From an uncultured Methylomirabilota bacterium (GTDB lineage: Bacteria > Methylomirabilota > Methylomirabilia > Methylomirabilales > 2-02-FULL-66-22), in the NCBI GenBank assembly GCA_963845565.1, contig CAWJSJ010000001.1, positions 992,001 to 1,056,000 of the forward strand: a stretch of 64,000 nucleotides of DNA. Direction: 5' to 3'. The position numbers and the translations under genes are program-made. Numbering within the stretch: the stretch's first letter is position 1; each line of letters begins with the position of its first letter. This document shows, piece by piece, positions 32,904-47,719 of this stretch. The notes below the pieces were generated by a model. That model was not told the DNA's origin and did not search any database. It worked only from the letters and a program-made list of their open reading frames with translations.

Positions 32904-33066
32904 CAACTTCGCCAGCCCGGCGGCCGGGGTCCGCGCACACCGCCATGGCCGGACGCACCGCCGAACGCTCCGGTCTGACCGCCCCGTCCGAACGCGCAGT
33001 TCTGGCCTTGACAAGTCCCTCGGCGTTTGGGTTACAATCCCGCCAACGTCATCTCCAATATCCATC

Positions 33067-33171
33067 CGCTCGGCCCTCTGGGAGTGGCACGATGCCCCGG
33101 TATCGAATCCCACGAGCGAGCCTTCGCGCCCTGGTTGGTCCTTCGGACCGACGAGGGCGTTTGTGTTTGTG
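33067..33171 (+). promoter_or_regulatory. Candidate structured leader RNA with a terminator-like hairpin
   Basis: cgctcg/cgagcg closing stem with inner hairpins, then cgccct-g-gttggtcc-ttc-ggaccgac-g-agggcg followed by tttgtgtttgtg; TTGACA-19-TACAAT at 33008-33038. Confidence 0.45.
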
Positions 33172-33234
33172 CGGTTCCGCTCTGCGATAGCGCTCCACAC
33201 CTTTCGACGGGTTTCCGGAAAGGAGGGACGTGCC

Positions 33235-33702
33235 ATGCCGGTACGGGTGACGTGCGCTCTGGGAATCGGCGGCCGCCTGGCGGGTCCGCCCGACGAGAAC
33301 GATGCGATCCTCGCACAGATTCAGGTTCTCCTGCCGAAAGAGGCACCCGCCGGCGTGAGTGGGGGGTGGCCCGGCGGCCTCGCCACCCACGGCTGGCGGA
33401 TCGCCTCCTGGAGCTCCGCCGCGGAGGTCGGCGGCGAAAGCGATCGGGAGACGCGGCTCACCTTCCGCTGTGAACTCAACACACTCCTGGACGGCACCAT
33501 CTATGACTGTCGGGACGAGCTGACCTACACCCTCTTCCACGGCTTCGCGCATTATCGCGACGCCGTGTGGCACAAGGACCTCAAGGTTCGATTGGAGGAG
33601 CTGAATCATGAGATCGCCCAAAGGTATGGGGCCGAGAAGCTCATCGAAAAGATCTGGTTCAGGCACTGGGAGTTCTCGTGCGGCAACGGGGGCGACCATT
33701 AG
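33235..33702 (+). CDS. Hypothetical protein (155 aa), first gene of the SBP/two-component locus
   Basis: Strong RBS AAAGGAGGG, protein-like composition, stop overlaps the next gene. Confidence 0.75.
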   Translation: MPVRVTCALGIGGRLAGPPDENDAILAQIQVLLPKEAPAGVSGGWPGGLATHGWRIASWSSAAEVGGESDRETRLTFRCELNTLLDGTIYDCRDELTYTLFHGFAHYRDAVWHKDLKVRLEELNHEIAQRYGAEKLIEKIWFRHWEFSCGNGGDH

Positions 33703-35254
33703 ACGCGTAGGGTGGCGTCCCCTCTGGCGGGTAATCCTCGTCGCCATCGCGCTGGTCATCGTCGTGCCTGTCGCCGTTGCCGGGGGCGGCGAGAAGATCC
33801 TCGTCCACCACCTCGAGGCGCAGCCGGAGTCCCTGGACACGGCCAAGTCCGGCTCGGAGCGGGCCAACCGGGTTCTCTGGCTGCTCGGGGACGCCCTGCT
33901 GAACGTCTCCAGGGACGGGAAGAGCCTGGAACCCGGCCTTGCTCGGTCTTGGAAGCTGTCCGAGAATGGCCTCCAGGTGGTCTTCAGCCTCCGCTCCGGC
34001 GTCCGGTTTCACGATGGAACGCCCCTCACCGCCTTCGCAGTGAAAGAGAATTTCGAGCGGCAGTTCCGCCCGGGTCATCCCCTGTACTCGACGGATCCAA
34101 AGAACAGCAAGGAGCAGCTCCTGAGCCAGCTTATCGAAGGCATCGAGGTCCACGACGACTTGACGATCACGTTCAAGTTGAAATATCCCAGTTTGCACTA
34201 CCTGGGCCAGGTCGAGATCGCCAGCCCGACCGCCCTGGCCAAGCTGGGCAAGGAGTTCGCCCGAACGCCCACCTACACCGGGCCGTTCCGGTTCGACCGG
34301 TGGGAGAAGGACCGGTTGATTCTGGTGGCCAATGATCGGTACTGGGCCGGGCGGCCAAAACTGGACCAGGTCGTCTTCCAGTTCATTCCCGGCGGCGAGG
34401 CTCTCGTCGCGGCCATGGTGAACGGCAGTGTGGACTTCGCCCCCGTCCTTCCCGAACCCACGCTCTTCGAACGCCTGCGAGACGAGTCCCGGATCACGTT
34501 GGCGCAGGTCCCAGCCCTGAACGTGTTCTACCTGGGCTTCTATACTGAACGCGCGCCGCTCAACAATCCGCACCTGCGGCGAGCGGTGGCGCACGCCGTG
34601 AACGTGGAACGGGCCGCCCAGGCCCTGGGTCGCGGCGTTGCCCTCCCGGCGAAAGGACCGCTCTCCCCCGCCATCCTGGGTTACGACCCTTCGGTGACCC
34701 AGGCCCCATTCGACCTTCGATTGGCGAGAGAATCGGCCGCACGCGCCGGGGGGAACCCGAACCTGACGCTCCGACTGGTGCACAACAACACCACGCCCTT
34801 CGACGTCGACCTGGCGTCGTCCATCCGGGTGGACCTCAGGCAGATCGGGATCGCCGTTCAACTACTCGGCAAGCCGGGATTCGCGGAGATGGTCAAGGCC
34901 GTGCAGAGCCGCGAGGGGGACATGTTCATGTATAGCTGGCATATCCGCTCGCCCCATCCGGAGCGCCTGCTCCACCCACTCTTCCACTCCAAGTCTTCCG
35001 GCACGTCGAACTTGACCCGGTACACCAACGCGAAGCTGGATCGGCTCCTGGACGACGCCATCATGGCGCCGCAGGGACCGGCGCAGGACAAGCTGTATTC
35101 GCAGATCCAGAAGACGATCGTGGACGACGCGCCGATGGTGTTCCTCTATCACTCGACGCGGATGGCGGCCTATGCCGATCGGGTCAAGGGCCTCGAGTTG
35201 AATCTCGGCGCCCTGCCCCACGACAAGCTGGTCACGGTGGATCTCGCACCCTGA
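33608..35254 (+). CDS. Family 5 (OppA/DppA/NikA-type) solute-binding protein 1, with signal peptide
   Basis: RRVGWRPLWRVILVAIALVIVVPVAVA signal; [35 protein letters not shown]. True start may be nearer 33698. Confidence 0.9.
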   Translation: MRSPKGMGPRSSSKRSGSGTGSSRAATGATIRRVGWRPLWRVILVAIALVIVVPVAVAGGGEKILVHHLEAQPESLDTAKSGSERANRVLWLLGDALLNVSRDGKSLEPGLARSWKLSENGLQVVFSLRSGVRFHDGTPLTAFAVKENFERQFRPGHPLYSTDPKNSKEQLLSQLIEGIEVHDDLTITFKLKYPSLHYLGQVEIASPTALAKLGKEFARTPTYTGPFRFDRWEKDRLILVANDRYWAGRPKLDQVVFQFIPGGEALVAAMVNGSVDFAPVLPEPTLFERLRDESRITLAQVPALNVFYLGFYTERAPLNNPHLRRAVAHAVNVERAAQALGRGVALPAKGPLSPAILGYDPSVTQAPFDLRLARESAARAGGNPNLTLRLVHNNTTPFDVDLASSIRVDLRQIGIAVQLLGKPGFAEMVKAVQSREGDMFMYSWHIRSPHPERLLHPLFHSKSSGTSNLTRYTNAKLDRLLDDAIMAPQGPAQDKLYSQIQKTIVDDAPMVFLYHSTRMAAYADRVKGLELNLGALPHDKLVTVDLAP

Positions 35255-35325
35255 CATCGCCGATGAACGAGATTCAATTCCGCCACGAGCACCGTCAACG
35301 GGGCGTAACGCTGGAGGGCGCGGCC

Positions 35326-36360
35326 ATGACGAAGGTTTTCATCCAGGCCCTGGAGGGTCCGCCGGATGATCTCATCGCCTTCACCGGAAAGAGCGAGCGG
35401 GACATCCGGGTGAGATGGCTAGTTGCCAATGAGACGAGTCATGGTGAAAAGGGCCACAGCATGGATGGCCCCTGGGCCAAGAACACGGACAAGGATGACC
35501 ACAACGGCGTGTTTTTGAAGCGATCGCAGAATTGGCCATCCGGTGCCATTGGGAATATCGACGAAGTCCACCTGATCTACATTTCCGACGGGACGCAGTT
35601 CCCCAACGAATTTGCCACCGGAAAACTCCACTTCGCCCCATCTCTGACCGACCGAGTGACATTCGACACACTCTCGAACGACCCCAGTATCGCGGTGCGG
35701 TCGTCGGGTAACATCAGCATCTTCTTTCTGGCATTCAGGCTGGAGAAGATCGGCCGAGCGCTCCGCCGGCAGATCGCCAGCGCCATTGACGTTAACGCAC
35801 TCGCAGATCTCTGGAGCCAGGCGGCGACTGCGGCTTCCGCCATAATTCCACGGGGAATGCACGGGCACGATTGGGGCAAGCATGAGAAAGTCCAGGTGAA
35901 CCCCAGCGTCCCGCCTTTGACGCTTCTCTGCCCGCCTCAAAATACCTTCGCCCATGACCTTGCGACCAATATCCAGCGGCAATGTGTCCACGCCAAGATC
36001 ACTGTGGCATTAACCGGGACGTACCGGAATTGGAGAGAGATGACCGAGGCCTGGAAGCAGGGTCAAGGCGATATGGTCATTGCCTCGTGGCACCACCGCA
36101 CTTCCCAACCGGACGATCCGGACCGGTACCTGAATGCGCTGTTTCACTCAAGCGGCGGAGCAAACTGGGGCAAGTACGGGGCAGTCGATTCGATCCTCAA
36201 GAACAAGGAGCACGAGAAGGCGGTCAAGCAGATCAAGTGGGATGTCCCAATCGCCCCCCTCGTATACTGGAATCGGTTCTCGGCATATCGGACCGGGCTC
36301 GGCCTGGAGTTGGAGGCGGGAGCGTTACCCAAGGACAGGCTCGTGAACGTCAAGATCTAG
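35326..36360 (+). CDS. Family 5 solute-binding protein 2, no signal peptide, internal deletion of about 115 aa
   Basis: ATG after GGAGGG; IDEVHLIYISDG, LRRQIASAID, NALFHS, LELEAGALPKDRLVNV align with the neighbouring paralogues. Confidence 0.75.
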   Translation: MTKVFIQALEGPPDDLIAFTGKSERDIRVRWLVANETSHGEKGHSMDGPWAKNTDKDDHNGVFLKRSQNWPSGAIGNIDEVHLIYISDGTQFPNEFATGKLHFAPSLTDRVTFDTLSNDPSIAVRSSGNISIFFLAFRLEKIGRALRRQIASAIDVNALADLWSQAATAASAIIPRGMHGHDWGKHEKVQVNPSVPPLTLLCPPQNTFAHDLATNIQRQCVHAKITVALTGTYRNWREMTEAWKQGQGDMVIASWHHRTSQPDDPDRYLNALFHSSGGANWGKYGAVDSILKNKEHEKAVKQIKWDVPIAPLVYWNRFSAYRTGLGLELEAGALPKDRLVNVKI

Positions 36361-36379
36361 CAGGCGGAATCGTGACGCG

Positions 36380-37819
36380 ATGGACCACACGCGGATATTC
36401 GTGTACGCCCTGGAGGGCGAACCGGAGAGCCTGGACCCTGCGGCCAAGCGGTACTCCGAGCGGGCGATCCGGGTCAAGTGGCTCCTCTTCGACTCGCTCC
36501 TGAATATCGGGAACGACGGCCGCCGCCCGGAGCCGGGAATCGCCGAGGCGTGGATCGCGTCGGACGGCGGCCGATGCGTGGACATGACGATCCGGCACGG
36601 CGTTCGCTTCCACGACGGGACCTCGCTCGACGCCGAGGCGGTCCGCCTCTGCTTCGAGCGGCAGTTCGCCACCGATCTCCACGACCCGAAGAAGCAGGTG
36701 CTCTCCGCCCTGGTGGATGACGTCCAGGTGCGGGATCCGCGGACGGTCGTCCTCCGGTTGAAGTCCGACGTCTTCGGCTACCTGGCTCGGCGGTATCTCT
36801 ACAAACTCGGTGTCGTCAGCCCGGATGCCCTGGACAGGCTGGGCGGCGACTTCGCGCGCCACCCGATCGGCACCGGCCCGTTCATGAACCCGCAATGGCT
36901 GACGGATCGCATCGTCCTGTCCAAGAACCCTGACTACTGGGCCGGAACGCCGGCGATCGACGAGGTCCACTTCCGCTATATTCCCGACGGAAAAGAGGCC
37001 CTGGAGCGACTCCTCGCGGGCGAGGTCCACTTCGTCCCGAGCCTGTCGGATCCCGAGGCGATCCAGCGCGCGCTGGCCGACCCTCGCCTCACGGTCATGG
37101 TGGTCCCCGGATTCAACGTGTTCTATCTCGGCCTCCAATGCCGGAAGGCCCCGTTCGACCAGCCGCTCATGCGCCAGGCCGTCGCCCGGGGAATCGATGT
37201 CCACCGGGCGGCGCTCGCCGGCAAAGGGGCCGCCGTGCCGGCCTGCGGCCCGCTCCCGCCGCACATGGAGGGTTTCGATCCACTCATCCGCCAGGCACCC
37301 CCTGACCCGCGTGCCGCCGCGGCCCTCCTGGCGCAGGCGGGGTACGACGGTCGGCCGATCAGCTTGATCCACTATGGACCACCCTCCTTCGTCCGGGACC
37401 TTGCGCTGGCGGTGGAGCGGGATCTCCGCGGGATCGGCCTCAACCTCACCCGCCGGGAGATGCCGACCTGGACCGACCTGGTCAAGGCCGCGGCGGAGGG
37501 AGAAGGCCATCTCTTCCTGTATAGCTGGCACATGCGGACGGACGACGCCCAGGGCTTCTTGCGGGCCCTGTTCCACTCCAGCAACATCGGCGTCTCGAAC
37601 CTCACCGGCTACGCGAATCCGGAGGTCGACCGTCTCCTCGACCTCACCCCACCAGGGGAGTTCTCGGCCGTCCAGGCGACGATTCTCGCCGAGGCGCCGA
37701 TGGTCTTCCTCGCGCACTGGACACGAGTCGCGGCTCACGGGGTCCGGGTGAGGAATCTCCGGCTGAACCTCGGCGTCTTGCCCGAGGACAAGCTGGTCGG
37801 CGTGGACCTCGCCCGCTGA
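36380..37819 (+). CDS. Family 5 solute-binding protein 3, no signal peptide
   Basis: Begins [55 protein letters not shown]. Confidence 0.88.
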
Positions 37820-37830
37820 CCCGCGCACGG

Positions 37831-39978
37831 GTGGATACGGTGACCCGGACTCTGGCCGCGCAACGCATCATTCGTCGCTACCGGGACTTGAGCCTCCGAG
37901 CCAAGTTCGCCATCTACATCGCGCTCTCCATCGGACTCCTCTTCGCGGTCCTCCTGCCGAGCGTGCTCCACCTCGAGCGGCGCGCCGTGCTGGCCGAGGC
38001 GGAGGAGCGAGGACTGCAACTCACCAAGATCTTCGCCCACGCCAGCGTCCAGGCCCTGATCACCGACGACTTCCTCCTCATGCGGCCTCTGGTCCACAGT
38101 GTCGCCAGTGAGCGCGCCGTTATCGTTGTCATGATCCTCGACCGCACCGGCAGGGTCGTCACCCACAGCGATATCAGGGAGGTCGAGCAGATCTACACCG
38201 ACGCCGTGACCACCCGCGCCCTTCGCGCCACGCGGCCCCTCGTCCAGGAGATCATCCACAACGGAATTCCGGCCTACGACGTGGCTGTCCCGATCTTCGT
38301 CCTCAACGACCGCCGCGCGGTGGCCCGCGTGGGAATCTCCCTGGCGCGGGAATTGGCCGCCATCCGGCAGACGCGCAATCTCATCCTCGGCGTGGGCATG
38401 ATCGCCCTGACCGTCGGTTTGCTGTCGGCCATGTGGTTGGCCCGCGGCATCACCGAGCCGATCCGCCGCCTCGTGCAAGGGTCCCGGGCCATCGCCGCGG
38501 GCCGCTTGGAGTACCGCATGTCGGCGACCTCCGGGGGCGAGATCGGCCACCTCGCGGACGCGTTCAACGGGATGGCCGAATCCCTCCAGGTCCGGTTCCA
38601 GCTCGACCGGGAGCTGTCCTCGACGCTGAACCTCCAGACGGTCCTCGACACCCTGGTGTATCATGCCCGGCGGCTCGTCCGCGGCGATCTTGCCTTTCTG
38701 GCCTGCTGCTACGAGCGCGACAAGCCTGGCGCTGTCGTCGCGCTCGTGGGTGTCTCGGGAGACGCCATCCGGACCTGGGCGATCCAGCCGGGCAGCGGAT
38801 GGACCGGGACGGTTCTCGCGGAGAGCCGCCCGGCGATCCTGTGTCCGGCCACGCCCAAGGATGACCCGATCGAAGCCCGGGTCGTCTCCGAGGAGCGCAT
38901 CCAGGCCCTGGTCCTGATCCCGGTTCGCGTCCGAGGCCGCTGCCTGGGCGTCCTGGCGGTGGGCCGATGGCACCGTAATCCGTTCTCCCCGGAAACGCAG
39001 GAGGTCCTGGAGCGGCTGGCCGACGAGGCCGCCGTGGCCCTGGCCAACGCCCTGGCCTACCGGGAGATCGAGGCGCTCACCCAGAGTCTGGAGGTCAAGG
39101 TCATTCAACGGACCCTGCAGCTCTCCGACGCCAATACCGCGCTGGAGACCGCCAACGCCAAGCTCCAGGAGCTGGATCGCTTGAAGTCGGAGTTCGTGTC
39201 GAACGTCTCTCACGAGCTTCGCACCCCCCTCACCGCCATCCGGATGTCGGTGGACAACCTCATGGACGGCGTCGCCGGGGAGATCGGCGAGTTCCTCCGC
39301 AATTATCTGGAGCGCATCCGCGCCAACACCGAGCGACTCGCGCGCCTCATCGCCGATCTCCTGGATCTGTCCCGGATCGAAGCCGGCCGGATCGAATTCC
39401 GACCCGAGGCGGTGCGCGTGGCGGACCTCGTCCGAGACGTCCTCGACGGTCTGCAACCGGTCGCCGCGGGGAAGCGACTCGAACTCGCGGCGGCGACCCC
39501 GGATCGCTCCCTGCACGTCCTCGCCGATCGCGACCGGACCCACCAGATCCTGACGAACCTGGTGGGAAACGCCCTGAAGTTCACCCCAGCGGGCGGCTCC
39601 GTGCGCGTCGCCGCCCGCCGCGTCGAACAGTCAACTGGTCAAGATGTCGATCCGTCTGAACCAATCGACCGATTAACGAGTGGACAAGTTGACCCGCCCA
39701 CAGGGTGGGCCGAGATCGTCGTCGAGGATACCGGCGAGGGAATTCCTTCCGACCAGCTTCGGGCCGTCTTCGAGAAATTCCATCAGGTTCGACGGGGCGG
39801 AACGAGCAAGGCGCCTGGCACCGGACTCGGCCTCGCCATCGCCAAGAGTCTCGTGGAGCTTCAGGGGGGGCGTATCCGGGTGGAGAGCGAGGTCGGCCGG
39901 GGAAGCCGGTTCGCGTTCACGCTCCCCGCCGCGGACGTGTCGGTTCCTGCGGCAACCCGTGCCGCCCAGGGGTACTGA
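37831..39978 (+). CDS. Membrane sensor histidine kinase (2 TM, extracytoplasmic domain, HAMP, GAF, HisKA, HATPase)
   Basis: [46 protein letters not shown]. Confidence 0.93.
39622..39696. repeat. Degenerate 8-bp repeat array in two inverted arms, inside the kinase ATPase domain
   Basis: gtcgaaca gtcaactg gtcaagat gtcgatcc ... tgaaccaa tcgaccga ttaacgag tggacaag ttgacccg. Confidence 0.55.
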
Positions 39979-39980
39979 CC

Positions 39981-41345
39981 ATGTCCAACCTTCGACAGCA
40001 CCGCGTCCTGGTGGTGGACGACGATCCCGATCTCCTGGATCTGCTTGCGGACCGCCTCCGTCTCATGCGGTTCGAGGTGGAGTGCGCCGACGACGGCGAG
40101 AAAGCCCTCCGGATCCTTCGCCAGGAACCGGCGCCCATCACGCTGCTCGACCTCCAGTTGCCGGGCATGAGTGGCCTGGAAGTCCTGGAGCGTATCCGGC
40201 GCGAAGGGATCGACACCACGGTGATCGTCATCACCGCCTGGGGAACCGCCCAGCGTGCCGTCGACGCCATGCGGGCGGGAGCCTACGACTTCATCCCCAA
40301 ACCGCTGGATCCCGCGCATCTCGAGGTGGTGATCAACAAGGCGCTGGAGCGCCACACCCTCCGCGCGGAGAACACGCGCCTCCAGACGGAGTTGAGCAGC
40401 CTGGAGCGGCCCCTCATCGGCCAGAGCCCCGCCATTCTGGAGGTCATCCGGATCGCCCAGCAGGCCGCGGCCAGCAACGCCACCATCCTGATCCGCGGGG
40501 AGAGCGGCACCGGCAAGGAGATACTCGCGCGGGCCATTCACCGGTGGAGCGAGCGGCGCCTTCGCCCCTTGGTGACTGTCAATTGCGTGGCGTTGTCCGA
40601 AGAACTCCTGGAAAGCGAGCTGTTCGGCCACGAGAAGGGGGCCTTCACGGGCGCCCACCAGCTCAAGCGGGGCAAGGTGGAGGTGGCGGAGGGCGGCACG
40701 CTCTTTCTCGACGAGATCGGGGACATCCGCCCTGCCCTCCAGGCCAAGCTGCTTCGACTCCTGCAGGAACAGGAGTTCGAACGCGTGGGCGGGATCCGGC
40801 CCATACGGGTGGATGTTCGCTTCATCGCGGCGACCAACACCGACCTGGAAGGCCTCCTGAGGCGGGGGGCGTTCCGGCAGGACCTGTACTACCGCCTCAA
40901 AGTCGTCACGGTCATCCTCCCGCCGCTCCGCGCCCGGAAGGACGACCTGGCGTTTCTCACCCGCCATTTCATCGAGAAATACAGCGCCGAGCTGAAGCGC
41001 CCGCCGAAACCGGTGTCGCCCGAGGCGGCGGCGCTCCTCGCCCACTACGACTGGCCGGGCAACGTCCGCGAGCTGGAGAACGCCATCGAGCGCGCGGTCA
41101 CGCTGTCCACCGATTCCGAGATCGGACCGCACGACCTCCCCATCCTCGAGCCCACGGAGGATCGTGCCGCGGATCGCGCCGGCGGCGGGACGTACCACGA
41201 CGCCGTATTGCAGTTCAAGCGGCAACTCCTCCAGGACACCCTGACCAGGGCCAATGGGAATCAGACGCGCGCTGCCGAGGCGCTCGGCCTCCAGCGCACC
41301 TACCTGGCGCGACTGTTCAAGGAATACGGCATCAACACCCAGTGA
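39981..41345 (+). CDS. Sigma54-dependent response regulator (REC-AAA+-Fis HTH)
   Basis: VLVVDDD, LLDLQLPG, GESGTGKE, ESELFGHEKGAFTGA, FLDEIG, WPGNVRELEN, NQTRAAEALG. Confidence 0.96.
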   Translation: MSNLRQHRVLVVDDDPDLLDLLADRLRLMRFEVECADDGEKALRILRQEPAPITLLDLQLPGMSGLEVLERIRREGIDTTVIVITAWGTAQRAVDAMRAGAYDFIPKPLDPAHLEVVINKALERHTLRAENTRLQTELSSLERPLIGQSPAILEVIRIAQQAAASNATILIRGESGTGKEILARAIHRWSERRLRPLVTVNCVALSEELLESELFGHEKGAFTGAHQLKRGKVEVAEGGTLFLDEIGDIRPALQAKLLRLLQEQEFERVGGIRPIRVDVRFIAATNTDLEGLLRRGAFRQDLYYRLKVVTVILPPLRARKDDLAFLTRHFIEKYSAELKRPPKPVSPEAAALLAHYDWPGNVRELENAIERAVTLSTDSEIGPHDLPILEPTEDRAADRAGGGTYHDAVLQFKRQLLQDTLTRANGNQTRAAEALGLQRTYLARLFKEYGINTQ

Positions 41346-41532
41346 GTCCGCGCGCCCCGCGTCGGTCACTTCCGCCACAGAGTCCCAGCCAATCCCCTAC
41401 CTGGTGCCACACACAGGCAGATACAGACCGTATCTCTTTCCATACACTTCCCACGCGTGACGGTGAGGGGCCCGATTGGACCTACCCGAGACATTCCCGA
41501 TAGTTATCGGACCCACCGACTGCGTCGATGAT

Positions 41533-41548
41533 CGGCACGCGTCCTGCT
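41533..41548 (+). promoter_or_regulatory. sigma54 (-24/-12) promoter
   Basis: cGGCACGcgtcCTGCt gives GG-N10-GC, about 67 bp upstream of ATG 41615. Confidence 0.6.
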
Positions 41549-41614
41549 CTCCCCTCATGGCAGGTAATCCTGCGAACGCCGCACCGGGTGCGAAGACCCG
41601 AGGAGGAAGCAGCC

Positions 41615-42109
41615 ATGAAGCTCGCAACTGTCGGTCTGGCCACCATCCTGGCGCTCATCGGCCTCGTTCTTGTTCTGACGGCCCTCGGTCCAGCGCAACC
41701 GGTTCTTTCCCCCGACACCCGTGTCGCTCAGCCGGCCAAAAACGTCCCGCCCGAGGTGGCGAGTCTCGCCGGCGTCTGGGAAGGCGCGCGAGGTCAAGTC
41801 TTCCCGAGCCGTATCGTGGTGGAGAAGGTCCATCCGGAGTGGGCCAACATCCTCTACGCGTGGGAGGACGATCCAAACGGACGGTTCCAGGCGGGATGGG
41901 TCCGGACGCGCGCCAAGGTTCTTCCGGGCGGCAAGCTGCACTGGCGGCATCCGGGCGATTTCACGTTCGAACTGTCCGAGGATTACACCGCACTCGTGGG
42001 CAAGAAGGACCAAGCGGGCCGGACCATCACGTTCGTGCTGCATCGCAGCGGACCGCTCCTCGCCTCGGTCAGCGCGGACCGCTTGCCCCTGCCCGGCTCG
42101 CCGGAATGA
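41615..42109 (+). CDS. Small secreted or membrane-anchored hypothetical protein
   Basis: RBS GAGGAGG; signal-like MKLATVGLATILALIGLVLVLTALGPA; beta-strand-rich remainder. Confidence 0.8.
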   Translation: MKLATVGLATILALIGLVLVLTALGPAQPVLSPDTRVAQPAKNVPPEVASLAGVWEGARGQVFPSRIVVEKVHPEWANILYAWEDDPNGRFQAGWVRTRAKVLPGGKLHWRHPGDFTFELSEDYTALVGKKDQAGRTITFVLHRSGPLLASVSADRLPLPGSPE

Positions 42110-43628: not shown

Positions 43629-44567
43629 CTACAATCCAAGTTTCCGCAGCACCTCTTCAACCGCGGTATAGGGGTCGGTTTCCCGCGCGGCGATCCGGTC
43701 GACCAGGGGGTCCAGTCCGGCGCCACGCGACAGGCTGTCCAACGCGCGTGCCGTCAACCGCTCCTGGAGGAGCCCTCGAAATACCCACCGCGTCCGCTCG
43801 CGGCCCTTGCGGCGATGCCCCTCCTCCTCGAAGAGGAACTCGCGGTGCCCCAGGATGCCCTGCGTCAGGGCGTCGATCCCCTCCCCCCGGGACGCCACGG
43901 TCTTGAAGATCTTGGGACGCCAGCCGTCGTCCGACTCCCCGTGCTCCAGCATCATCTCGATTTCGAGAACGGTCCGGTCGGCCCCGTCCCGATCGGCCTT
44001 GTTCACCACGAAGACGTCCCCGATCTCCATGATCCCGGCCTTGATCACCTGGATCTCGTCGCCCAAGCCCGGCACCGCAACGACGATGGTCGTGTGGGCC
44101 GTCCGGACGATCTCGATCTCGGCTTGCCCCACGCCCACCGTCTCGATGAGGATATATTCCTTCCCCATCGCGTCCAGCACGTCCACCACGTCGTTCGTCG
44201 AGCGCGACAGGCCGCCCAGGTGCCCCCGGGTCGCCATGCTGCGGATGAAGACCCCCTCGTCCAGGCTGTGCCGCTGCATCCGGATGCGATCGCCCAGGAT
44301 CGCCCCGCCGGTGAAGGGGCTGGTCGGGTCCACCGCGATGATTCCCACCGTCTTGCCCAACTGGCGGAGCTCGGCGGTAATACGATCCGTGAGCGTACTC
44401 TTCCCCGAGCCGGGCGGACCCGTGATGCCGATCACGTAACCGCGGCCCGTGTGAGGATAGATCGCCTTGAGCGCCGCCACCGCCTCCGCGGTCCCGTTCT
44501 CGACCATGGTGATCAAGCGGGCGGCCGCGCGCGGATCGCCGTGCAGGATGCGTTCGATCAATTCCAT
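43629..44567 (-). CDS. meaB: MeaB/ArgK GTPase chaperone of B12-dependent mutases
   Basis: GITGPPGSGKST, AVDPTSPFTGGAILGDRIRM, IETVGVGQ, NKAD. Confidence 0.95.
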   Translation of the reverse strand: MELIERILHGDPRAAARLITMVENGTAEAVAALKAIYPHTGRGYVIGITGPPGSGKSTLTDRITAELRQLGKTVGIIAVDPTSPFTGGAILGDRIRMQRHSLDEGVFIRSMATRGHLGGLSRSTNDVVDVLDAMGKEYILIETVGVGQAEIEIVRTAHTTIVVAVPGLGDEIQVIKAGIMEIGDVFVVNKADRDGADRTVLEIEMMLEHGESDDGWRPKIFKTVASRGEGIDALTQGILGHREFLFEEEGHRRKGRERTRWVFRGLLQERLTARALDSLSRGAGLDPLVDRIAARETDPYTAVEEVLRKLGL

Positions 44568-44696
44568 CAGCTCGACTCGCTCGTCAGGGTGCAAGATTTA
44601 CGGGTCAAGGTACCACGGACGAAAACGACCCGTCCACGACAAACCGCCCCGTTCTCCTGTCCTGGTCGTTCGCAGAGATGCGACCATCGCCTGCCG

Positions 44697-44735
44697 AAAA
44701 AAAGAACCGGGAGGCGATACCTCCCGCCTCCCGGT
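44697..44735 (-). terminator. Intrinsic terminator after the TRAP operon
   Basis: A7 then accgggaggcg...cgcctcccggt. Confidence 0.7.
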
Positions 44736-44760
44736 CGCGTCGCCGCCAATATCGAACGCG

Positions 44761-46064
44761 TCAGATGAACTTCGGCATGATCAGTTTCGGGATGAACAGC
44801 ACCGTCTGCGGGAAGAGAATCACCAGGAGCAACGCGATGAGCATCGGGAACAGAATGATCAGCACATCCTTGAGTACATGCCCCACCGTGGTCCGGGCGA
44901 TGGCCACGTCGATCAGGAGGCATAGCCCGTACGGAGGGGTGACCAGGCCGAAGGCCAGCGAGATGACCCCGATGATCCCGAAGTGGACCGGATGCATGCC
45001 CACACTCTGCGCCAGCGGCGCCAGGAGCGGCGCGATGATGATGATCGCCGGGACCGCGTCGATGAAGCAGCCGATGAAGAGGAACGCCGCCGCCTCGATG
45101 AGGCCCACGCTGGTGATCCCCACCCCGTACTGCGAGAGGGTCGCCACCACCAGTCTTGGGGAGCTGATAGTACGCCATCACCCACCCAAACGCCGACGCC
45201 GTCCCGATGCAGAACAGGGAAATCGAAGCCAGACGGGTGGTGTTGTACAGAACGTCCTTGATCTCCTTGATGCCCATCGAGCGGTGAATCGCCAACCCGA
45301 CTCCGAACGAATAGAGCACCGCGACCACGGCCGCTTCGGTCGGCGTGACAAACCCGCCCACCACGCCGCCGATGATGATGATCGGGGTCATCAGGGCTGC
45401 CAGGGCGCGCCCACAGGGATCGACCGAATTCCTTCAGCGTCGCCCGGGCATAGACCGGGTAGTTGCGCCGCTTGGCGTAGAAGTAGACCGCGGCCATCTG
45501 CGAGAGCCCCACCATGATGCCGGGAATGAAGCCGCCCAGAAACAGTGCCCCGACGGAGGCGTACAGGACGCCGCCCCAGACGATCATGAGGATGCTCGGC
45601 GGGATGATGACGCCGATGACCGACGAACAGGCCGTGATCGCCACGGTGAAGGAGGTGTCGTAGCCCTGCTTCTTCATCGCCGGAATGATGAGGGAGCCTT
45701 CGCCGGCGGCATCGGCCGTGGAGGAACCGGAGATCCCGGCAAAGATCATGCTGACGACGACGTTGATGTACGCCAGGCCGCCACGGAATTGCCCCACCAG
45801 GCAGTGGGTCAGGTCCACCAGCCGATCGGTGATCCCCGCCGAGTTCATGATGTTGGCGGACAGCAGGAAGAACGGCACCGCCAGCAGGATGAAGGCGTTG
45901 TACGCCTTGGTCATCTCCCCCATCATGAGGACGGGGGTGAGCCGCGGGTTGAACGCCATGATGGGGAGGCAGGCCAGCCCCAGCGCAAAGGCCACCGGGA
46001 CCCGGAGAATGATCAGAACCCCGAAGGTGCCGAAGAGGATGAGCGCGACTTCACCGGGCGACAT
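44761..46064 (-). pseudogene. dctM: TRAP transporter large permease DctM, two apparent frameshifts (about 45405 and 45155)
   Basis: LLAVPFF, FAGISGSSTAD, IIPPSI | TPTEAA | GMHPVHFG, VTPPYG spread over three frames. Confidence 0.85.
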
Positions 46065-46590
46065 TGTGATCCCCCCGCAGGTGGGCGAGGGCATTCTGGT
46101 CGCCCCGCCACACCCGAATGGCGTACCAGATCCGTTCGCCGATGAACAAGGTCCAGATCACCCCGACCACCAGATAGACCCCATGAATGAAGACCATGTT
46201 GATGCCGGTCAGCTCCGAGGTCTGGATCCAGCCGAAGGCGGCATACTGCCACCCGTAGATCACGAAGACCCAGGTGAAGATCAGCATGAAGCCGTACACC
46301 CAGAGGCGCATGATGGCTTCCATCTTGGGGTTCTTCGGCGTCGGCAGGACGTCCACCTCGAAGTGCGTCCCGTCCCGCACCGCGATGGTCGCTCCCACCA
46401 TGATGATCCAGATGAAGCAGAAACGGGCCGCCTCCTCCGTCCAGATCTACCGCGGGATCAGGCCGGTGTACCGGGAGAGGATCTGGAGCGTCACCGGAAC
46501 GATCAGGAGTCCCATGAGGACCCAGGCAAGCAACTGGAACCCTCGATATATGACGTCGAGGATACGCGAAAATGCCGGTCGGTCGTGCAT
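46051..46590 (-). pseudogene. dctQ: TRAP small permease DctQ with in-frame TAG at 46447-46449
   Basis: MHDRPAFSRILD...LQILSRYTGLIPR*IWTEEAARFCFIW...VRDGTHFEVD. Confidence 0.85.
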
Positions 46591-46651
46591 GCACGCTCCC
46601 ACATCGCCGTCCCGCCAAACGGGCGTCCGGTGGCGCGGCGCGAATCCAGAA

Positions 46652-46687
46652 CGAACCGGCTCCCCGAAGACCCGGGGAGCCGGTTCG
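46652..46687. other. Strong stem-loop between dctP and dctQ
   Basis: cgaaccggctccccg / cggggagccggttcg, 15-bp perfect stem. Confidence 0.6.
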
Positions 46688-46716
46688 CCACACGATTGGT
46701 CCGAACCTAGAGCCGA

Positions 46717-47719
46717 CTACTTCACCGCGTTGATGTTGGCCAGCACCTTCTCGGCGCCGATTTCCTTGGCGAATGCCTCTTTCACCGGAGCGGCCAGCTC
46801 CAGGAGCTTGGCGCGGTCCGTGAATCGACGATGCGTGATCTTCTTCTCGGCCTTCATCTGGTTCAGGATCTTGTCGTCCGCGTCCCGCTCCCACGTGCGG
46901 CCGTGGGCGGCGCCGTCGTCGCCCGCCTTGACGACGCGTCCTGGAGGTCGTCCGGCAGCTTCTTGAACGTCTTCCCGCTGAAGCAGAGCGGCCGGATGGT
47001 GATGGCGTGCTGGGTGAGGGAGATGTCGGGCGCCACCTCGTGCCACTTCATCTGGGACCAGCCCGGGGTCTCGTTCTCGCCCGCCATGATGACGCCGGTC
47101 TGGACGGCGTTGTACACCTCGTCATAGGCGATGACGGTCGGGGCCGCGGTGATGGCCTGGAACATGTTGGTCTGAATCGGGGCGCCCATGACGCGGATCG
47201 AGAAGTTCTTGAACTCCGCCATGTTGCTCACCGGCTTCTTCCCGACGATGTTCCGGACGCCGCCGCCGGCGTACCCGATCAGCATGACATCGGCCGACTT
47301 CATGAGATCGTCATAGACGGGCTTGAGCGCCTCCCCGGTGGACAGGATCTTGTTCCAGTGGTCGATGTCCCGGAAGAGGAACGGCATGTCCATGATGGTG
47401 GTCATCTTGGAGAAGGTGGCGGCATGTGCGACGGGGCGAACACGGCGTAATCCACCGACAGGCCCTGGCTCATGTAGTTGACGTAATCCTTCTCCAGGCC
47501 CAGCTCCCGGTTCCGGTGCAGCATGAACTTGATCGGCTTCCCGTAGCACTTCTTGACCTCTTCCTCGAACTTGAGCATGGTCTGGTTGTACGAGTGGGTG
47601 TCATCGAACTGGCTGGCACCCTTCAGCGCGATGGTCTGCGCCAGCGCAGGCATCGCGGGAACCGCGAGCGCCACACCCAGCGCCACAGCAAGGACGAACC
47701 GCACAGTCTTCCGAGTCAT
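46717..47719 (-). pseudogene. dctP: TRAP solute-binding protein DctP, two apparent frameshifts (about 47420 and 46938)
   Basis: Signal peptide, DMPFLFRD, IRVM, EVYNAVQTGVI, SLTQH, FKKLPDDLQ spread over three frames. Confidence 0.85.

Follow-up and report, generated by a model that had tools for sequence, protein, structure and literature searches.

A permease-less family-5 binding-protein module linked to an sCache kinase in a Methylomirabilota genome, with a candidate peptide-tail ligand

We analyzed a 64-kb stretch of DNA, hereafter the window (contig C1, positions 992001-1056000, of the Methylomirabilota genome labeled G000), and in it a locus that encodes three family-5 solute-binding proteins (SBPs) next to a sensor histidine kinase and a sigma54 activator. 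Relatives of this locus are given L-numbers and genomes G-numbers. Seven open reading frames, all on the plus strand, match the co-directional order proposed in an earlier note made from the sequence alone (the original prediction): hypothetical gene, SBP1, SBP2, SBP3, kinase, activator, and a small protein of 164 residues. The hypothetical gene, here called HYP, had been left uninterpreted in that note; we read it as a likely signal source, as it lies directly upstream of an SBP1-type gene and carries a conserved [N/D]GG tail. The features are as follows.

33008..33038, plus strand: sigma70-like promoter candidate TTGACA-N19-TACAAT before HYP; spacing above the optimum; similar site in G016 (L031)
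33235..33702, plus strand: HYP, 155 residues, no signal peptide, ferredoxin-like alpha/beta fold in the model; likely signal precursor
33679..33699, plus strand: C-terminal tail of HYP, CGNGGDH, with the conserved [N/D]GG motif
33608..35254, plus strand: SBP1, family-5 SBP with a hydrophobic signal peptide; start codon uncertain; likely kinase co-sensor
35326..36360, plus strand: SBP2, signal-less paralogue of about 345 residues without subdomain II; divergent, apparently swapped allele of lower GC content
36380..37819, plus strand: SBP3, signal-less full-length family-5 paralogue under purifying selection
37831..39978, plus strand: sensor histidine kinase, TM-sCache_3-TM-HAMP-GAF-HisKA-HATPase (TM, transmembrane segment); sCache domain at 37969-38382; H-box SHELRTP intact
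39981..41345, plus strand: sigma54 activator, REC-AAA+-HTH; GAFTGA intact
41420..41434, plus strand: predicted activator site GATAC-N5-GTATC, 113 bp before the sigma54 promoter
41533..41548, plus strand: sigma54 -24/-12 promoter CGGCACGCGTCCTGCT, a sequence match
41615..42109, plus strand: predicted target gene, 164 residues, N-terminal hydrophobic segment, no known family

Pfam assigned PF00496 to SBP1, SBP2, and SBP3 with 261, 47.7, and 230.7 bits, respectively (cut-off 32.4; the SBP2 match is partial), sCache_3_2-HAMP-GAF-HisKA-HATPase_c to the kinase, and REC-Sigma54_activat-HTH_8 to the activator. The start of the activator was corrected from 39705 to 39981 and that of the small protein to 41615. 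Contigs from RNA libraries of three studies span parts of HYP, SBP1, SBP3, the kinase, and the target gene; such contigs cannot show transcription or operon structure.

Linkage of the SBP clade to sCache kinases

The original prediction stated that the locus has no Opp/Dpp permease or ATPase. Its permease part held, as no OppB/OppC-type permease was found within the window, and the matches to PF19300 and PF12911 on contig C1 lie outside it at 761962-766560; the ATPase part was not covered by a separate ABC ATPase search. Elsewhere, the genome contains 23 OppB-type and 21 OppC-type matches, and 22 of its 24 family-5 neighborhoods include oppB/oppC, the exceptions being the studied locus and one on contig C2. 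By gene content, the locus is not an Opp/Dpp importer.

We then used SBP3 to search 251 genomes of the phylum. Matches were found in 25 of them, giving 28 loci outside G000, of which 27 were examined with wide flanks while one 1.6-kb contig was left out. A related sCache kinase was adjacent or divergent in 26 of the 27 loci, and the remaining contig ended first. None of the 27 contained an oppB/oppC operon; L046 has an oppC fragment nearby, and L043 an ordinary family-5 SBP on the other strand. As a control, 78 loci of ordinary family-5 proteins (25-34% identity) were inspected: oppB/oppC were present in 61, and the related sCache domain in none. The permease-less SBP-kinase linkage, whose conservation the original prediction had proposed to look for, is thus retained across these relatives, and the closest homologues do not sit in ordinary ABC operons, an arrangement it had named as contrary to its reading. 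Tandem family-5 SBP genes with no oppB/oppC match within the flanks were seen in Poribacteria (L075, L077, L082, L083, and L088).

The SBPs and the sensor domains also diverged together. Across 24 loci, SBP distance correlated with sCache distance (rho 0.82, partial rho 0.72) and with kinase-core distance (rho 0.60, partial rho 0.23). The conserved linkage and the tracking of sCache over the kinase core support the predicted sensing module in which SBP1 serves the external domain of the kinase. SBP1 is a likely co-sensor of the neighboring sCache kinase.

Phylogenetic analysis with IQ-TREE (LG+G4, 43 rows) united SBP1-type proteins, SBP2, and SBP3 in a single clade (100/100); SBP2 and SBP3 were each other's closest relatives (100/99), and the trio fell inside the kinase-linked clade (100/98). 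The grouping agrees with the outcome expected in the original prediction, as do the motifs SER, SWHxR, and LPxD[KR]L, found in all three SBPs. Of the local triplication proposed there, the common origin stands while the local part does not: SBP3 forms about 20 clusters at ≥60% identity and SBP2-like proteins form 21, so the duplication is older than this genome. Among the matches listed, the clade shares only about 30% identity with ordinary family-5 proteins, and its restriction to the phylum is not proven.

The [N/D]GG tail as a candidate ligand

HYP was found in 9 of the 251 genomes, always directly upstream of an SBP1-type gene. The family comprises 61 clusters at 50% identity and matched no Pfam or NCBIfam family. 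Its C terminus is conserved as CGNGG(x) or xxDGGD(x), and 76 of 86 family sequences, fragments included, fit the tail pattern; Trp residues are conserved as well. The AlphaFold2 (AF2) model (predicted local distance difference test score, pLDDT, 92) has the order beta-alpha-beta-beta-alpha-alpha-beta and a loose C-terminal end (pLDDT 61 in the final block). Fold matches were weak and ferredoxin-like, the best having Z 6.0 and a root-mean-square deviation of 3.7 over 98 residues, where Z below 8 may reflect a shared arrangement only. Foldseek gave no match for HYP at E≤0.001, and the ESM Atlas none at ≥0.9 for HYP or the target protein. A FliL-like fold did not appear in the match lists, although it is not thereby excluded.

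The end of HYP overlaps the start of SBP1, for which ATG 33608, ATG 33626, and ACG 33686 are candidates. The triplet at 33686-33688 is ACG in the window, L031, and L053, and ATG in L038, where it is formed by the Asn-Gly codons of HYP. Thus, translation of SBP1 begins at a non-standard codon or else at an ATG located as much as 78 bases upstream. We considered whether the tail is kept merely through overlap with the SBP start codon and rejected this, because the tail persists without overlap or on the other strand. An apparent HYP-SBP1 fusion in G016 was read as a one-base assembly error, as the same locus has other frameshifts. In L053 (356-550), HYP and the signal segment of SBP1 are separated by about 200 extra bases, possibly a repeat element, through which the SBP1 frame stays open. 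In L158 (429-2579), a haem-peroxidase-like gene precedes and is co-directional with a 234-residue HYP bearing an insertion, and sigma54-like sites point both ways in the gap before the kinase.

Sister loci without HYP encode a different small protein with a similar end. In 10 such loci, we found a protein of 50-90 residues ending in E[N/D]GG(NGx), encoded upstream on the SBP strand in five and elsewhere on the opposite strand in the other five. With half of the loci on the opposite strand, the tail is a trait of the protein. A gene for an HExxH peptidase is present in 9 of the 10. Of 66 genomes in the order, 15 encode the small protein, and all 15 belong to the genus (15 of its 20 other genomes); G000 and G016, both of which carry HYP, lack it.

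As an out-of-sample test, we scanned the 900 bases upstream of each SBP in a related module for the tail pattern, which had been derived from HYP and the small protein. Most of the phylum carries a more distantly related sCache family (matches at E≤1e-12 in 149 of 251 genomes, a count that takes in the close family), and a permease-less family-5 SBP lies upstream in 11 of 14 sampled loci. The pattern matched 9 of these 11, and 7 of the matches are true peptides. In comparison, it matched 2 of 77 ordinary loci and 3.6% of random segments (7/11 versus 2/77: Fisher p 2e-6, a value overstated by kinship). In the close clade, where the pattern was first noticed, it was present in 13 of 27 loci, one of them by chance. 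The matches in the related module are prepeptides of 43-45 residues with a signal segment, ending in [D/E]GGxGGx, for example DGGGGGY. A profile of the peptide matched all 11 related-module loci and 129 of the 251 genomes, and a family-5 SBP lay directly downstream in 30 of 30 peptide loci examined. At the equivalent position, a deltaproteobacterial locus encodes a signal peptide and then EGGGGA; nothing of the kind was seen in a second one (L188). Neither the peptides nor the peptidases matched an NCBIfam family, geopeptide included. In G000 itself, L150 (9391-9999; contig C2, 2167390-2167998, minus strand) contains three identical tandem genes for a 44-residue secreted prepeptide, flanked by a sigma54 activator on one side and by a permease-less SBP5-sCache kinase pair on the other, and the gene copies reach five in G237 and G240.

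Because the same tail occurs on HYP, on the small proteins of sister loci, and on secreted prepeptides beside related SBP-kinase pairs, the SBP ligand is likely to be a self-made tail peptide. In our reading, to which we give a probability of about one half, the locus is a conserved permease-less module in which SBP1 acts as co-sensor and the [N/D]GG tail of HYP would be its ligand.

Several observations weigh against this reading. The profiles of HYP and of the small sister protein are not similar (hhalign probability 0.3%), leaving the tail as the sole link between the two proteins. Four kinase-linked loci (L041, L050, L152, and L154) have small upstream genes without the tail. HYP has no signal peptide, and neither a C39 peptidase nor a homologue of the sister-locus HExxH peptidase was found in G000; other exporters, AgrB, and ComQ were not searched. 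The tail of HYP is near constant while SBP2 varies widely, so that SBP2 diversity does not track the tail. Physical linkage by itself could produce a higher SBP-sCache correlation, and genomes that share ancestry do not count as independent. When the search was reversed, starting from the sCache alignment, six more close kinases emerged: one has an SBP, two have none (L160 and L161), one has a decayed remnant, and for two the contig is too short to judge. Thus, the kinase can lose its SBP. The remnant lies upstream of the kinase in L163 (8200-13000), where the divergent genes appear to resemble YcaO and TfuA.

In the f4 family (L050:8990-9280, L152:3195-3470, and L154:3167-3454), the small gene that precedes the SBP has a long Asp-Arg repeat at its end. 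A methyltransferase gene adjoins the SBP gene, and L152 and L154 also have a gene for an HExxH-like peptidase nearby. In L041 (8600-12271), two tiny genes, a secreted metallopeptidase-like gene, and two ATP-grasp-like genes precede the kinase-linked SBP, which suggests a modified-peptide variant.

The residues of the binding pocket bear on what the ligand could be. D408 and R355 are described as the dipeptide anchors of DppA in PMC8566422. Neither anchor is kept here: the D408 position is Arg in SBP1, SBP2, and SBP3, and R355 is Asn in SBP1, whereas the SBP of the secreted-peptide module, which fell in a different clade in a second tree (FastTree, 84 rows), keeps Asp at D408. A second conserved Arg lies in the SER/SDR motif of all three SBP types. 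According to PMC3295651, D408R in HbpA2 blocks dipeptide binding, and a broad ligand range is reported for family-5 SBPs in PMC10443332. It is possible, if doubtful, that SBP1 is a co-sensor for a small molecule that HYP makes or modifies as a dimeric alpha/beta-barrel enzyme, or that comes from the environment as in AioXSR. Besides the reported effect of D408R, the best weak HYP folds are of EthD, ABM, and IsdG type (Z 5-6), Trp residues are conserved, and the haem-peroxidase-like gene precedes HYP in L158. However, such Z values may mean a common arrangement only, and a small molecule leaves the same tail on 50-residue proteins and 44-residue secreted prepeptides unexplained.

Signal-less paralogues and the sigma54 output

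SBP1-type proteins have a hydrophobic signal segment, and SBP2 and SBP3 begin directly at the mature fold. SBP2 also lacks the stretch between the RxxW helix and the GP motif in all 19 full-length sequences aligned. By alignment, the deletion corresponds approximately to residues 34-182 of 1dpp, that is, subdomain II (IB), the extra subdomain of cluster C proteins, which SBP1 and SBP3 keep. The subdomain is described in PMC10851439, and PMC8566422 places the family-5 binding site between domains I and III. The AF2 model of SBP2 is confident (pLDDT 88) and matches family-5 structures (1dpp, E 6e-17). We rejected the possibility that SBP2 is a pseudogene, as it is open in 19 clusters with a ratio of nonsynonymous to synonymous substitution rates (dN/dS) of 0.07-0.36 and has a confident fold. 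SBP3 showed dN/dS of 0.16-0.34, similar to neighboring genes.

The SBP2 allele differs sharply between the window and G016. The synonymous distance (dS) is 1.8 for SBP2 and 0.12-0.32 for five flanking genes, DNA identity falls from about 90% to 49-72% across SBP2, and the two alleles lie in different subclades of the IQ-TREE tree. The dS jump, the drop in identity, and the discordant subclades indicate that the SBP2 allele was replaced between strains.

The original prediction had SBP1 feeding the external domain while cytoplasmic SBP2 and SBP3 read a related ligand inside the cell and may act on the GAF domain or the activator. Such a role would fit the fact that both are signal-less, conserved, and adjoin the kinase gene. 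However, many kinases have GAF at loci in which SBP2/3 were not seen, three kinases of the family lack it, and its identity to the window kinase is 56% in the SBP3-bearing L057 versus 46-69% in nine same-genus type-B loci without SBP2/3. GAF is no better conserved where SBP3 is present, and the activator gene is absent from the SBP3-kinase loci L054 and L058. The GAF route finds no support here, and we consider action on GAF or the activator unlikely.

We regard it as quite unlikely that the SBPs are orphan import receptors for Opp/Dpp permeases encoded elsewhere, with the kinase linkage reflecting co-regulation. Family kinases persist without an SBP in L160 and L161, the genome offers 23 OppB-type matches, and some SBPs, such as that of CBP-ChiS, serve both transport and signaling (PMC8050422). 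Nevertheless, no clade member sits in a permease operon, SBP and sCache are co-inherited, and ordinary signal-peptide export is impossible for SBP2 and SBP3. It is very unlikely that SBP2 and SBP3 hitch-hike on SBP1 as extra periplasmic co-receptors widening the ligand range, for although the genes are tightly coupled (in relatives the SBP2 stop overlaps the SBP3 start), pocket motifs are kept, and several SBP1 signal regions have RR pairs, by eye these pairs misfit the twin-arginine consensus (no Tat predictor was run).

The sigma54-type promoter of the original prediction was recovered as the -24/-12 site at 41533; matches of that score occur at 0.045 per kb. Strict GATAC-N5-GTATC sites number three in 5.36 Mb, and only the one in the window pairs with a sigma54 site. 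With the spacer relaxed to N4-7, a palindrome 88-123 bp upstream of a sigma54 site was found in the window and in 7 of 33 loci scanned (L031, L045, L048, L049, L051, L057, and L155). Thus, at the sequence level, a REC-AAA+(GAFTGA)-HTH activator, a -24/-12 promoter, and an upstream site are all present. Homologues of the target protein are encoded near related modules in L031, L048 (two), L049, L057, and L155. A second palindrome, CCGATAGTTATCGG, occupies 41496-41509, downstream of the activator site and before the sigma54 promoter; L031 retains it. The region upstream of HYP in the window has no sigma54 site and no activator site, and a sigma54 site before HYP was found in one of 10 upstream regions scanned (L035). 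With a sigma70-like site and no activator site before the operon, no feedback loop is evident. Kinase output differs among loci, being a sigma54 activator, a single receiver, a hybrid receiver, or none; the sigma54 output is a variable part of the module.

Elsewhere in the window (44567-47700, minus strand), genes of a tripartite ATP-independent periplasmic (TRAP) transporter appear split over several frames, which may be due to assembly errors; the near-identical L051 has an intact large permease of 433 residues.

Proposed mechanism and comparison with known systems

In the mechanism that we propose, HYP or its cleaved tail peptide would reach the periplasm of neighboring cells; as HYP has no signal peptide and no matching peptidase was found, release by cell damage or another route is likely. 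SBP1 would bind the tail and switch the kinase through its sCache domain. The kinase would phosphorylate the activator, as established for this protein class, and the activator is predicted to bind GATAC-N5-GTATC and turn on the sigma54 promoter of the 164-residue membrane-anchored gene. SBP2 and SBP3, which have the same pocket residues, may remain in the cytoplasm with HYP and bind its tail as sinks or chaperones, the step that we hold least firmly. More tentatively, the locus could be a diderm alarm for kin damage or kin presence, in which the signal is a folded cytoplasmic protein with an exposed tail, the signal-less receptor copies (one without a subdomain and with a pherotype-like swap) hold or edit it inside, and the released tail is read by a periplasmic family-5 receptor, kinase, and sigma54, the [N/D/E]GG code coming from three unrelated precursor types across the phylum.

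Such a mechanism would tie a family-5 receptor-kinase pair of a diderm phylum to a named candidate ligand, a tail of 4-7 residues that can be synthesized, and would constitute a self-signal circuit whose signal has no export tag. The locus also offers a natural family-5 protein without subdomain II and cytoplasmic receptor paralogues under selection. The locus appears to be an undescribed form of SBP-dependent kinase signaling that combines a candidate signal protein lacking a leader with two receptor paralogues lacking signal peptides; full-text searches, with most subscription papers beyond their reach, gave no description of such a module.

The SBP gene is conserved with the kinase gene in the manner of AioXS, TorTS, and CBP-ChiS (26 of 27 loci), with a mixed result in the reverse search. 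AioR is reportedly a sigma54-type regulator. As in AioX-AioS(-AioR), the SBP gene is kept with signaling genes rather than with a transporter and the kinase sensor is sCache-like, whereas AioX is a phosphonate-binding-family SBP for As(III), and the accessible part of PMC8050422 describes neither a self-made ligand gene nor signal-less paralogues. The same text presents CBP-ChiS of Vibrio as a family-5 SBP that controls a sensor kinase; in contrast to our locus, CBP is also tied to transporter genes and binds chitin oligosaccharides, and ChiS is dCache-like and binds DNA itself. In ScrB-ScrC, NspS-MbaA, and LuxP-LuxQ of Vibrio, a signaling-dedicated SBP likewise relays a cell-cell signal to a membrane receptor (PMC8050422), although other SBP families and small-molecule signals are involved, and ScrC and MbaA are cyclic di-GMP enzymes. 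Among solved structures, the nearest are those of E. coli DppA and Pasteurellaceae HbpA2, which have the same fold. The D408R change is also present in HbpA2 (PMC3295651), while DppA serves an ABC importer and has the R355/D408 anchors that are not kept here.

The secreted-peptide cassette of Methylomirabilota (RR-peptide-SBP5-sCache) is similar in its permease-less family-5 SBP, related sCache kinase, sigma54 activator, and [D/E]GG tail; it differs in its SBP clade, Sec-type prepeptide, Asp at D408, upstream activator, and lack of SBP2/3. Peptide cell-cell signaling is mostly known from Gram-positive bacteria. In pheromone systems of Firmicutes (Phr, agr, and ComQXPA), the signal is a short C-terminal peptide of a small precursor, its gene lies beside that of the receptor, and the cassettes vary between strains. 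Our locus differs from these in its diderm host, its receptor of periplasmic SBP plus kinase, its sigma54 output, and its folded, leaderless candidate precursor of 155 residues. If the ligand has been correctly deduced, the locus would nonetheless work like a peptide pheromone cassette.

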